Positions 33,312-59,055 of a stretch of DNA of 64,000 bases are shown in pieces. Numbering within the stretch: the stretch's first letter is position 1; every line of letters starts with the position of its first letter. Below the pieces are notes generated by a model. It was not told the DNA's origin. It ran no database searches and saw nothing but the letters and a program-made list of their open reading frames with translations. A program made the position numbers and the translations under genes. The stretch is from Octopus vulgaris (lineage: Eukaryota): contig OX597832.1 of assembly GCA_951406725.2 (NCBI GenBank), positions 31,124,001-31,188,000 of the forward strand. The letters are read 5' to 3'.

Positions 33312-33594
33312 TATATCGTATGAATGAGATTTGACTTGCATGCGGTGACCAGTGCATGCCACTGATGAGGCCCAATAAACCGAAACCACGTGTGATATGG
33401 GAATTCCGGCGCTCATGACAGACGAATTTCGTCTGCTACGATCTATGAGTGCACCTTTATGTACCAAGCGCCTGTATGAGAACATCTACCAGGGCTAATA
33501 ACACAGTATTCGGTGTTCTAACATGGCATCCATGTTAAATTGGACATAAAAATTACCGTTTGGTGTTCGTGTTAATACTGCCTCCGTCACTGAT
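33312..33594 (+). mobile_element. Hammerhead-containing retrozyme-like repeat, copy 1 (HHR 33359-33400)
   Basis: CCA-CUGAUGA-GG..CC-GAAA-CCACGUGUGA-UA-UGG. Its sequence blocks are homologous to 58774-59055 but in permuted order. Confidence 0.65.
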
Positions 33595-33722
33595 AACATA
33601 TATAACAACAACAACAACAACAATAACAACAACAACAACAATATTGATGATGATGATGATGATGATGATAATAATAATAATAATAATAATAATAATAATA
33701 ATAATAATAATAATAATAATAA

Positions 33723-34040
33723 TGCGATAAGGAAGAAAGAAAAGTCGATAGATATGACAGTTTAGCTTGGGAAGTTAAGGAGTTGTGGTCGATGAAAAAG
33801 TTAGTAGTAGTAGTATCAATAATTGTCGGAGCCCTGGGAATAGTGAGTAAAAATGTTGAGAAGTACGTGGAACAAATAGGGGCTGCAATAAGGGTGGAGC
33901 ACTTGGAGAAAACAGCACTGCTTGGAACCGCTCGAATACTCTGGAAGGTGCCCGAAAAATAAGAGGTGTTACTTTAGTTCACTGGTAGTGAACAACTGAC
34001 ACCGTAGTACACCTTCAGTGTTAGAAGCTGTACAAAGACA
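33723..34040 (+). mobile_element. R4/Dong-like non-LTR element 3' end between (TAA)n tracts
   Basis: DKEERKVDRYDSLAWEVKELWSMKK...IIVGALGIV...HLEKTALLGTARILWKV, stop at 33960-33962. Confidence 0.88.
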
Positions 34041-34559
34041 ATAATAATAATAATAATAATAACAATAACAATAATAATAATAATAATAATAATAATAATA
34101 ATAATAATAATAAAGGATAAAGCGGTTAAAAATTTTATCAGTGGCCAGCTTATAATATACACCTTTTAAGGTGAATCCATATCCAGAGATTTATAATAGT
34201 ATAAGATACAATTACAATTAAGGGCTTAGAAGAGATCATGGCTATGCTGAAAATAGACACCAAATCGCCAAACCACTTAAAAATAATCACTTTTACAGTA
34301 CACATCGTGTTGAAATCGGGGGAGTGGGATTATTTTCAGCATAGGCATAGTCTCTACCACAAGCTTAATTATAATTGTGTTATATACTATTATAAATCTC
34401 TCTGTCTTTCTCTTTCTCTCTCTCATACATATATGTATATATATATATATATATATATATATATATATATATATATATATATATATATATAACACACACA
34501 CACAATATATATATATATATATAAGGACTTTCTTAGAAGTTATTAACTATTCCAAAATA

Positions 34560-54685: not shown

Positions 54686-55932
54686 TCCCTTTTACTCCCT
54701 CCCCCTCTCCCTCCACACATACACACACAGTGTACTTTTACTCTTCAGAAACAAACTGCAAAAACGGTCCTAAAGAGCTCTGAATGCCTGTTGGCCATAA
54801 TGGAAGCAACAGCAACGCGACGAGAGGCGGCGGCCTCTGATCACTCGCCAAACGAGTCCATCACGGACAAAGGTGTCGCTATGAAATCCCAACTGTGTAA
54901 TGCACGCGCTATAATGGCGACAGATTGATACAATCAATTATTGATCAATTAATTAGATCAACTTTCTGCTTGATTGCATGGTGGTGGCGGTGGCGGCGGC
55001 GATGGCGCTGATGTATGCATATGCATGCATGCATACATACACACACACACATACATACATGCATACATACACACACACACATACATACATACATACTTGC
55101 ATACATACATACATACATACATACATACATACTTGCACACATACATGCAGACATACATACATACATACATACACTCACACACACACAATCTATGTGTATG
55201 CATGTATGTATGTGTGTATGTATGTAACTTTATATACTGTCTGTCTGTCTGTCTCTCAATATATTTAACGCGTAAGGCGGCGATGTGGCAGAAACGTTAG
55301 CACGACGGGCGAAATGCTTTGCGGTATTTCGTCTGCCGTTACGTTCCGAGTTCAAATTCCGCCGAGGTCGACTTTGCCGTTCATCCTTTTGGGGTCGATT
55401 AAATAAGTACCAGTTACGCACTGGGGTCGATGTAATCGACTTAACCCGTTTTTCTGTCCTTGTTTGTCCTCTCTGTGTTTAGCCCCTTGTGAATAGTAAA
55501 GAAATAGAAATAGGTATTTCGTCTGTCTTTACGCTCTGAGTTCAAACTCCGCCTTGGTCGACTTTGCCTTTCATCCTTTCGGGGTCGATTAAATAAGTAC
55601 CAGTTGCGCACTGGGTTCGGTGTAATCGACTTAATCCCTTTGTTTGCCTCCTCTATGTTTATCCCCCTGTGGGCAATAAAGAAATAAATATATACACACC
55701 CTCACATTTTGAGTTATTTTTCCTTGTTTGCACCAGCACACTTTATATATCATATATCGTATTTGACAGCATATGAGGAACTCTTATTGATGAAAAACTG
55801 TCTCAAAATGCCATCGCAAGTCCTTATGCGCAGTTGGGCCTTTTATAAGATAATCTTATCCTTACCGCCCATTACCTTCAGCTAATTTTAATCCGATCGG
55901 TCTTTTCTACTAACCCTTACTTTTTTATATAT

Positions 55933-56318
55933 ATACTAGCAGTATCGCCCGGCGTTGCTCAGGTTTGTAAGGGAAATAACTATACAGCATTTTTAGAGAG
56001 TTATAGCCAAAAAATAGCAAAAAAATGCATTAAAAATGGAAAAAATATGATGGTAAATTTTTTTTAAAATCGTTGACTCATCGTAGACATTTTTAGAGAG
56101 TTTCTTCCCTTTAAAAAAATATGCATGAAAATGGAAAAATGGTAAATTATTTTTAAAATCGTAGACTCATCGTAGACGCGCGCTAATACCCAGAAGGGCT
56201 CGATATGAATCACGACTATAAAACACCCGGTTTTGGTTAAACTGCACCGCAAAATGTGGGACAGACACTCGAAGGGGACAGACACTCACACAACTACAGT
56301 TTTATATATAAAGATATA
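55933..56318 (+). mobile_element. Non-autonomous Helentron/DINE-1-like element
   Basis: Starts ATACTAGCAGTATCGCCCGGCGTTGC, has an internal ~90-100 bp tandem repeat and ACAGAC units, and ends TTTTATATATAAAGAT. Confidence 0.65.
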
Positions 56319-58773
56319 TAGAGAGAGTAATGTTTTCTGCTAAAGCCGAGACAGTTCAGTTATCTGCCGCGAGACTCCTTTCAATATTTCATGCTTTAAT
56401 GCCCTGGAAACATTTTCCCCTGAATATGTGACGGCTGTGTCCACATACAATACATACACTACGTGAATAGGTGTTTAGCTTCTTCTCTACCCAGGTACAA
56501 CCCACCCAGCGTTCTTTGTATTTCTATAGATGCATTAACTCTCTCTCTCTCTCTCTCTCTCTCTCTCTCTCTCTCTCTCTCTCTCTCTCTCTCTCTCCCA
56601 CACACACACACAGACTTCCTCTCTCCCTCTCTCTCTCACGCATACACTCGTCTACACGTACAGATATACCTAATACCTTTATATAATGCTTACTACTGAT
56701 AAAGTCTTAGGCTGAGAATTCACTTCGCTTAATGTCGGCTGCATACCCCGGGTATTTACCTACGATACGCGCCTGATATACATACATACATACATACATA
56801 CATGCATACATACATACATACACACACACACTCACACACACACAAATCTCTGTGTATGTATGTATGTATGTATGTATGTATGTATGTATGTATGTTTGTA
56901 TGTATGTATGTAACTTTATATACTGTCTGTCTGTCTCTCTCTCAATATATTTAACGCGTAAGGCGGCGAGCTGGCAGAAACGGTAGCACGCCGGGCAAAA
57001 TGCTTAGCGGTATTTCGTCTGTCGCTACGTTCCGAGTTCAAATTCCGCCGAGGTCGAGTTTGCCTTTCGTCCTTTCGGGGTCCATAAATTAAGTACCAGA
57101 TGCGTACTGGGATCGATTTAATCGACTGGCCCTCTCCCCCAAAATTTCGGACCTTGTGCCTTGAATAGAAAAAAATATATTTACCGCGTACGTGCGTGCG
57201 TGTATCTAAGTGTACATGAATGCATATATGCATATAGTGAAGGTGCGTGGCTTAGTGGTCAGGGGCATTCGGCTCATAATCGTAAGGTCTTGAGTTCAAT
57301 TCCCAGCGACGCATTATGTCCTTGAGCAAGACACTTTATTTCACGTTGCTCCAATCCACTCAGCTGGCAAAAATGAGTTGTACCTGTATTTCAGAAGGCC
57401 GGCCTTGTCACACTCTGTGTCACGCTGAATCTCCCGAGAACCACGTTAAGGGTACACGTGTCTGTGGAGTACTCAGCCACTTGCACATGAATTTCACAAG
57501 CAAGCTGTTCCGTTGATCGTATCAGCTGGGACCCTCGTCGTCGCAACCGACGGAGTGCTCCTTAATATGCGTATACAACTACGCAAGGGTGTGCGTGCAA
57601 GTACATACAGAGTACGTACTTGGATCTCTGTGTGTAATTAAACACACACACATACACACACAACAGTTGTAACAATAGCGGATAACTCATTCGTCTGGTT
57701 TTGTTGTGTGTGTGTGTTTGTGTGTGTGTGTGTTTGTGTGTGTGTTTGTGTGTTTGTGTGTGTTTGTGTGTGTGAGTGTGTGTTTGTGTATGTGTTTGTG
57801 TGTGTGTGTGTGTGTGTTTGTGTGTGTGTTTGTGTGAGTGTGTGTGTGTGTGTTTGTGTGTGTGCTCACAGAGACACGCGTGCGCGAGCGCATTGTAGAA
57901 AACACGCAACAACCCAAATATTGAACAACGAATTTCTATACAAGAAAGAGAGAGAGAGAGAGCAAGGGAGAGAGGGAAAGGGAGAGAGAGTGAGAGAGAG
58001 AGTGAGAGAGAGAAAGAGAGAGAGAGAGAGCAAAGGAGAGAAAGAAAGGGAGACAGAGTGAGAGAGCATTAACTTCTCCTGTGTCACTCACTATTCAGCT
58101 TCTATTGAACACTGCAGTAGTAGTGACGGTGTCGGTGGTGGTGGTGGTGGTGGTGGTGGTGGTGGTGGTGGTGGTGGTGGTGGTGGTGGTGTCGGTGGTG
58201 GTGGTGGTGGTGGTGGTGGTGGTGGTGGTGGTGGTGGTGTCGGTGGTGGTGTTTGATCGTCACAGCTGCTGATGGGTGGTGAGAGCAGACAGACAGACAG
58301 ACAGACAGACAGGGAACCGTGTCCCCAGCTGCCCGGCCAGGGGGTGTGGTGGGTGGATGGGTGGCAGGCGGGGAGTAGAGTTTGGATTAAAATGTGATGG
58401 TGGCAGTGGCGGTAAGAGGTGAAAGAAGCGTGTGAATGGCAGAGACGTGGGGGGAGAGGGAAGAGGTATGATAGTTGTGGTGGTGGTGGTGGTGATGGTG
58501 ATGGGTGAATAGCATAAGAGTGGTAGGAGGAGGAGGTCGGAAGGGGAAGTTAAGGGGTGGAGGGAGGGTGGATCACAGGTAGGAAGACAAATGTGTGTGT
58601 GTGTGTGTGTGCGTATGTGTGTGTGTGTGTGTGTGGTTTGCTGCTCCGTATCTAACAGCATTTATACACACAGGTAAATAAATACAGGTATAGATTAATT
58701 ATGAACGATGGAACCAGTAGCAATACCAAAAAGTAATATTTATATCCAACTTAACGTGGATGTCATGTCAACA

Positions 58774-59055
58774 CTAATAACGAAGTATTCGGTGTTCTAC
58801 TAAGGCATCCTTGTTAAGTTTGGTATAAAGATTATATTTTGGCATTATTACTGCTTCCGTTGCTAGTAATTAATTTTTAATGAAGCCGACTGGCTATTTG
58901 CGATATCAGAGTCTGGACAAGACGATGAAATTGCATATATCGTAGCAGTGACATCTGACTGACATGCGGTGAACGGACGCCTTCCACTGATGATTCACGG
59001 TGGACTGAAATCACGTGATATTGACTGACGATTCTCGTCTGCTGCGATTTATGTT
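58774..59055 (+). mobile_element. Hammerhead-containing retrozyme-like repeat, copy 2 (HHR 58983-59024)
   Basis: UCCA-CUGAUGA-UUCAC g GUGGA-cu-GAAA-UCACGUGA-UA-UUGA, with palindrome AUCACGUGAU. Confidence 0.65.

Follow-up and report, generated by a model that had tools for sequence, protein, structure and literature searches.

Non-LTR (non-long-terminal-repeat) retrozymes of metazoans are described as non-coding units of 170–400 nucleotides (nt) with a GC content below 50%, one type I hammerhead ribozyme and a self-paired fold, in genomes that also hold Penelope-like elements, PLEs (PMC7229834; 10.64898/2026.07.22.740005). PLEs themselves insert as partial tandems, often with an inverted, 5′-truncated copy at the 5′ end and optionally with a tail of 30–40 nt, and are biased towards microsatellites (PMC8557442, PMC3846280). 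The anole PLE enzyme, the sole one tested in vitro, cuts at ATT and starts reverse transcription from two internal sites, and does not need hammerhead cleavage (PMC11167929). Solo PLE hammerheads are abundant (PMC4209133), and both Penelope and Dong-R4 elements are expanded in coleoids (PMC8967140). Mobilisation of retrozymes by PLEs with circular intermediates is still a hypothesis (PMC7229834); the evidence on the life cycle is limited and comes mainly from vertebrates (10.64898/2026.07.22.740005). We analysed a 64-kb stretch of the Octopus vulgaris genome (hereafter the window), animal DNA rich in microsatellites and dispersed repeats, in which two sequence blocks, X and Y, occur twice and in opposite order. 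Both copies are decayed, and they belong to a non-coding repeat family that is old and dispersed and carries a type I hammerhead motif. A link of this repeat to PLEs is well supported, by an inverted 5′-truncated piece, a partial tandem, microsatellite flanks and a type I hammerhead with palindromic helix III. As to what the repeat was, we give an even chance to a fossil unit of ~345 nt without an open reading frame (ORF), of the order S-X-Y (S being a spacer), retrozyme-like and mobilised by PLEs.

Block X (33312–33481 against 58936–59089) aligns with a score of 56 and block Y (33495–33587 against 58774–58860) with a score of 71, the best of 1,000 dinucleotide shuffles reaching 29 and 31, respectively. 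As none of the shuffles came up to either score, chance is excluded as the source of the likeness; nhmmer over the whole 64 kb gave E=3.6e-14 for X and E=4.2e-9 for Y. An earlier note on this DNA had proposed the homology from the letters and is borne out, also in the block order, X-Y in copy 1 and Y-X in copy 2, and in the start distances of 183 and 162 nt. A third copy of X or Y was not found in the window by nhmmer or BLAST. The parts of the two copies and their flanks are as follows.

33312–33494, plus strand: block X of copy 1, the 5′ end of the copy, which holds the hammerhead (alignment to 58936–59102)
33362–33397, plus strand: type I hammerhead core of copy 1, predicted cut after A33397
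33398–33414, plus strand: segment that copy 2 lacks, predicted 3′ strand of helix I (alignment, and in-register pairing with the 5′ strand of copy 2)
33419–33435, plus strand: small hairpin kept in both copies, in copy 2 at ~59025–59041 (self-match, folds)
33495–33596, plus strand: block Y of copy 1 and 3′ end of the copy (alignments)
33604–33723, plus strand: (AAC)n(GAT)n(AAT)n tract that follows copy 1 immediately and was probably the insertion target
58694–58774, minus strand: inverted, 5′-truncated Y piece, head to head with copy 2, its outer (3′) end matching ~58874–58879 (nhmmer E=7.5e-6; 0 of 400 shuffles)
58774–58874, plus strand: block Y of copy 2, the 5′ start of the forward copy (alignment)
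58875–58935, plus strand: spacer S, which separates Y from X and may be unit sequence or, alternatively, a PLE 'tail' followed by the beginning of the next copy (contigs of sequencing runs X2 and X6)
58936–59102, plus strand: block X of copy 2 (alignment)
58987–59020, plus strand: type I hammerhead core of copy 2, predicted cut after A59020
59103–59129, plus strand: Y′, a short terminal restart of Y, 27 nt (20 of 26 letters identical to copy-2 Y)
59128–59178, plus strand: (AAT)n tract immediately behind copy 2, probably its insertion target

Copy 2 thus consists of the inverted Y piece followed by Y, S, X and Y′, ~1.1 units in all. Since Y restarts after X (Y′ against copy-1 Y, 0 of 400 shuffles as good; against copy-2 Y, 1 of 400), the forward part reads Y-S-X-Y′ with an internal period of 329 nt. 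Copy 2 lacks ~17 nt that are found in copy 1 immediately behind the cut site, the loss beginning at or one base after the predicted cut, which falls after A59020, in the same place as the earlier note gave. The unit size of ~345 nt is the 329 nt plus these 17 nt; the cycle of ~345 nt that had been proposed is right in its distances, but copy 2 as it stands has the shorter period, and the closure of the cycle from S to X is thinly supported outside copy 2. The unit has a GC content of 0.40, and a reading frame through it is rejected, as every one of the six frames has stops in both copies. Copy 1 consists of X-Y alone, less than one unit. Spacer S was not found upstream of it (437 of 500 shuffles score as well, and ten tests with S or Y gave no match), and because the upstream DNA is unlike S, copy 1 falls short of a full unit. 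We likewise rejected a degenerate Y or S in that place, no score rising above shuffles. A head fragment of a short interspersed element (SINE), presumably a tRNA-SINE, lies at 33273–33309 and is truncated 2 nt ahead of copy 1; other copies of it start at 7577, 15267, 23848 and further positions.

In our analysis copy 2 appears to fit the PLE insertion pattern point by point, with Y and Y′ as the partial tandem and the inverted 5′-truncated piece at the 5′ end. The 3′ end of copy 1 corresponds to ~58869 and that of the inverted piece to ~58874–58879, within ~10 nt of each other, and the end of Y′ lies ~70–75 nt earlier in the unit (Y+96, Y+101 to 106 and Y+27, respectively). Two of the three outer ends hence fall at the same place, and the varied permutation points that the earlier note expected are not what these copies display. 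Both forward copies run at their 3′ ends into (AAT)n-containing tracts, a post hoc observation on two cases; the window holds 13 rows of such tracts with at least 6 units. All four features, the 5′-truncated inverted piece, the partial tandem, the common 3′ ends and the flanking (AAT)n tracts, are PLE hallmarks, and therefore the permutation of the two copies needs no circle.

Coding remnants of the type of long interspersed elements (LINEs), which we take to be R4/Dong-like, lie beside (AAT)n tracts at 33723–33959, 26737–26961 (minus strand) and ~59250–59900. The coding remnant of 79 amino acids beside copy 1 had no Pfam or useful PDB match and fell only in unnamed Atlas clusters with few recorded members, mostly from Mollusca. 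Since LINE-like remnants follow both X/Y copies after the (AAT)n tract, one could suppose that the blocks are part of those LINE fragments, or else that they arose by local rearrangement or chance. We regard this as hardly credible: different LINE parts follow the two copies (the C-terminal end in one case, the reverse transcriptase (RT) region in the other), the homologous remnant at 26737–26961 has no X/Y adjoining it, chance fails against the shuffles and both block adjacencies recur in other contigs. That two LINE remnants follow X/Y copies suggests that the LINE and the X/Y elements target the same microsatellite.

The hammerhead core pattern occurs three times in the window, against 0.31 expected and with none of 100 shuffles reaching three, and two of the three are in the X/Y copies. 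Both have the core boxes, a UA cut site and a palindromic helix III, in type I topology. In copy 1 the anchored helix I has 3 bp and helix II has 2 bp, and 2 additional nt break up the helix III palindrome. In copy 2 the 10-nt palindrome of helix III is perfect (59010–59019; homodimer −14.3 kcal/mol), with 1 bp in the anchored helix I and none in helix II. Three complete helices can be formed in neither copy, and both ribozymes are predicted from these models to be inactive. Against the segment retained in copy 1 alone (33398–33414), the 5′ strand of copy 2 can be paired in register, as 5 bp, a 5-nt bulge and 4 bp, and a variant at 58983, T>C in eight X2 contigs, would change a U-G pair of this helix into C-G. 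This modelled pairing suggests, as a lead, that helix I of the ancestral hammerhead was bulged and in two parts. No Rfam model matched at the gathering score, and two local scans returned only chance-level snoRNA, miRNA, sRNA and lncRNA matches and no hammerhead. Core-pattern scans found nothing in metagenome contigs and nothing in prokaryote genomes; three matches in viral contigs were put down to chance, as they share just the searched letters and form no hammerhead.

The window has further hammerheads. Two more solitary type I cores lie at 28773–28796 (minus strand) and 16324 (minus strand); the former has a clean 4-bp helix II that resembles the decayed helix II of copy 1. The hammerhead at 28796 was rejected as a family member: it scored above shuffles (0 of 400 and 3 of 400), but its BLAST match is the 25-nt core alone. 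Long inverted repeats with minimal hammerheads, having palindromic helix III and a helix I of 4–6 bp, span 1827–2183, 32480–32900 and 48420–49012, with cores, several of them with variant letters, at 1978 (minus) and 2032 (plus), 32599 (minus) and 32773 (plus), and 48891 (plus). The elements at 32.5 kb and 48.4 kb are one family, and the hammerheads of all these inverted repeats look more intact than the X/Y ribozymes. PLE-type debris is thus common in the window, given several other hammerhead cores, some in inverted pairs.

Folded as a circle, the copy-2 monomer gave z=−3.6 with 63% of bases paired on the hammerhead strand; for the opposite strand z was −0.5, and the linear folds had values of −2.83 and −1.85. 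Background for the fold score came from 69 of 78 candidate windows. Unit size, a GC content of 40% and the circular fold all fit descriptions of retrozymes (PMC7229834). The folds of both copies contain, despite sequence changes, a predicted helix in which the end of X pairs with mid-Y sequence (approximately 58820–58846/59050–59078 and 33456–33468/33538–33550; two sequences only).

These traits raise the question of whether the family is a living non-LTR retrozyme, with tandem arrays elsewhere that would be transcribed, self-cleaved, ligated to ~345-nt circles and copied by PLEs into permuted insertions, the 17-nt loss at the cut site of copy 2 being a trimmed circle junction. The size is near that of mussel retrozymes (350–390 bp; PMC7229834), the GC content is 40%, the stable circular fold is strand-specific, copy 2 exceeds one unit and its deletion begins at or one base after the cut site. 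We nevertheless consider this unlikely. The window has no tandem dimer, neither ribozyme is intact, two of the three ends fall together, and the family contigs listed have diverged and show a depth close to that of a single locus; the 17-nt deletion, for its part, is one event in one copy. The contig survey described below is no test of that deletion, as the deletion itself breaks family alignments there. Equally doubtful, in our judgement, is the combined form of this explanation, a cephalopod retrozyme family whose template would be retrozyme-type circles and whose integration would be the work of Penelope machinery, with the inverted truncated piece, the preferred internal start and the ATT targets as its marks. 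The 17 nt missing from the scissile bond onwards would then preserve, in DNA, a circle junction that had been trimmed.

The X/Y repeat shares with the retrozymes cited above the non-coding unit within 170–400 nt, the GC content, the single type I hammerhead and the presence of PLEs in the same genome, and perhaps the self-paired fold, whose predicted score some background windows equal. It differs from them in that no tandem of hammerhead-bearing units was seen in the window or the listed contigs and in that both ribozymes are broken. A tandem of at least two hammerhead-bearing units is the criterion for an active retrozyme (10.64898/2026.07.22.740005), and as neither complete ribozymes nor a two-unit tandem was found here, we do not class the repeat as a retrozyme. 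Solo monomers of retrozymes have been described by Li, Clavereau & Pollet 2026 (10.64898/2026.07.22.740005). The inverted 5′-truncated piece of copy 2 is a PLE trait, and the available text of PMC7229834 and 10.64898/2026.07.22.740005 does not describe it for retrozymes. Animal retrozymes have been argued to be non-autonomous PLE derivatives, the retrozyme and the PLE pseudo-LTR readings being ends of one continuum (10.64898/2026.07.22.740005).

Ten sequencing runs contain part of the copy-2 stretch, and we surveyed the wider family by aligning contigs of four out of 24 listed runs to 58636–59128 at 80% likeness; loose ends, joints and pieces are counted here among the matches listed. From the DNA run X2, which may be the source of the window itself, 414 contigs aligned, 278 of them less than 90% alike and, by their divergence, mostly from other loci. 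The DNA run X6, which carries a different organism label, gave 291, with 195 less than 90% alike. The listed pieces have near single-locus depth (27–68 in eight X2 pieces, against 51 at the locus itself) and contain numerous minority transitions, which fits a dispersed family of considerable age, and no tandem array was seen among the listed contigs. In runs of organism labels B and C, 0.88 of the words were present, from which we draw no dating. Two runs, RNA by our guess, yielded 6 and 9 pieces that were short and of low depth, and one of these matched the locus without a difference over 208 nt; we use them neither for nor against expression.

The survey also shows which junctions recur. X to Y is common: besides copy 1, it appears in loose ends before 58774 that resemble the X end of copy 1 (11 X6 contigs and one X13 contig) and in four opposite-strand joints, among the matches listed. 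Y to S is common too, with loose ends behind 58881 in 19 X2 and 14 X6 contigs of the same listing. S to X is found there in copy 2, in X6 record 26 and in an ambiguous X2 joint, 58915 to 59022, which by itself does not fix the sequence between. Record 26 is colinear across this junction (58890–58976, ~80% identity) and, because of its 13 differences and 4 gaps, is probably a paralogue; two X2 contigs cover 58925. The earlier note's suggestion of a retrozyme family stands as far as a repeat family, with hundreds of contigs, and its PLE link are concerned. The circular-RNA part of it finds no support, given the lack of a two-unit tandem in the window, the broken ribozymes, the coinciding ends and the thin junction from S to X. 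We found no earlier description of this family in the literature on octopus, cephalopod or mollusc hammerheads, retrozymes or non-autonomous Penelope elements, although the supplements of PMC7229834 and 10.64898/2026.07.22.740005, or Repbase/Dfam, may list one.

The same contig data bear on a different origin, in which X+Y (~285–300 nt) would be the pseudo-LTR of an autonomous PLE with its ORF elsewhere, and S an optional tail plus the start of the element body. Copy 1 would then be a solo 5′-truncated end piece, copy 2 a stubby partial tandem or a gutted copy, and the 345-nt cycle a minority by-product. Indeed, contig depth halves from 58857–58873 to 58874–58890, drops again by 58908–58924 and rises at 58936, where copy 1 begins. 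Of the three ends, two lie where Y meets S, and the stretch of S that is shared past this border measures ~40 nt, as a PLE tail does (PMC8557442, PMC11167929). Most PLE hammerheads are single motifs of truncated elements (PMC4209133), and the window has other hammerhead families in inverted pairs as well as a truncated PLE ORF. The repeat is also like the pseudo-LTRs of endonuclease-bearing hammerhead PLEs in its partial tandem, head-to-head inverted 5′-truncated copy, shared 3′ ends, microsatellite or AT-rich targets and palindromic-helix-III hammerhead upstream of the 3′ end (PMC4209133, PMC3846280, PMC8557442, PMC11167929). However, the junction from S to X is not unique to copy 2, as record 26 and the two X2 contigs across 58925 show, and at least two loci join S directly to X. 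Copy 2 has several indels relative to record 26 at 58907–58936, which could alone break alignments, so that the fall of depth in S may be explained by copy 2's own indels. An ORF with RT or GIY-YIG is seen beside neither copy, and the longer, bulged helix I that we infer, with a 3-bp helix III, is closer to the canonical retrozyme than to minimal PLE hammerheads. We hold the pseudo-LTR origin to be possible, although we would sooner bet against it.

The only PLE ORF that we detected in the window, 43284–44516 (minus strand), is 5′-truncated and lies ~9.7 kb and 14 kb from the two copies. It has a GIY-YIG domain by Pfam and 181 longer relatives, the best 120 of which mostly have RT and/or GIY-YIG domains. 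Its assignment as Neptune-like also leans on PMC8557442. The element as a whole (43266–44516, minus strand, with its end region to ~42300) has an RT-thumb-linker-GIY-YIG frame that is open over ~410 codons. Its 3′ region is long and contains short internal repeats (42736–43075), and a degenerate hammerhead-like motif lies at ~42340–42365. For the Neptune-like label we rely on what we take to be its characteristic CxxC linker. A 224-nt duplication of 96% identity lies upstream of it (44756–44977 and 45246–45468). As parent of X/Y this PLE was rejected, its end region matching no better than chance (45 of 400 and 204 of 400 shuffles). At the two copies no PLE ORF or remnant was found: tblastn and a profile of 120 PLE proteins matched only 43.3–44.5 kb, and Pfam on 97 ORFs likewise gave none. 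Thus neither of these two copies, whose X/Y homology is significant, is attached to a PLE ORF, an attachment that the earlier note would have counted against its proposal.

The fossil ORF-less unit that we favour would have been copied in trans by a PLE reverse transcriptase with its GIY-YIG endonuclease into AT-rich (AAT)n sites. Reverse transcription would have a preferred internal starting point close to where Y ends and run back for a variable length along a template longer than one unit, either a tandem transcript or a circle; with just two copies, the template may be read either way. An inverted 5′-truncated piece may be added on insertion. One insertion would in this way come out as X-Y and the other as Y-S-X-Y′, with no need for random permutation. 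In its ancestral form the hammerhead would likely have cut best as a dimer, via its palindromic helix III. Such a unit would be comparable to non-autonomous PLEs such as MRC1 of Chlamydomonas, which is ORF-less, has pseudo-LTRs and head-to-tail insertions and needs an autonomous PLE (PMC8557442). MRC1, however, belongs to the Chlamys clade, mostly without canonical hammerheads, and was recently active (PMC8557442), whereas the X/Y family is animal, hammerhead-bearing and apparently old.

Several results weigh against this mechanism. The window and the listed contigs contain no tandem of two hammerhead-bearing units, and no target-site duplication was seen by eye in the flanks. The offset of the Y′ end, 70–75 nt, is larger than a PLE tail of 30–40 nt. 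The junction from S to X is thin: summed depth falls from 519 (X2) and 84 (X6) at 58907 to 124 and 15 at 58918, with one bridge among the listed contigs, and the matches beyond those listed comprise a further 280 loose ends, 13 joints and 771 pieces. Taken as a free duplex, the helix I modelled between the copies does not differ significantly from shuffles (189 of 1,000), the circular fold score is equalled by 4 of the 69 background windows, and the PLE ORF search used relatives of a single Neptune-like protein, so that other PLE clades could be missed.

Elsewhere in the window, a 1.6-kb head-to-tail duplication at 51463–54685 with 99.6% identity is either a recent tandem duplication or an assembly artefact. 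A DDE_1 transposase fragment at 61003–61278 (minus strand; E=4.8e-4) is below the Pfam cut-off, a 100-N scaffold gap occupies 61726–61825, and a 68-nt unit is repeated 3.3 times at 19559–19777 inside a common SINE-like repeat family.

The finding adds one more hammerhead-bearing Penelope-type repeat, of a kind known in many animals, and is mainly useful for repeat annotation; no host function is indicated. The family nevertheless offers hundreds of independent old insertions with PLE footprints, in which insertion ends and junction losses can be mapped statistically. Should such losses prove to be concentrated at the cut site over hundreds of copies, the role of circular RNA as transposition intermediate could be tested from genome data alone.

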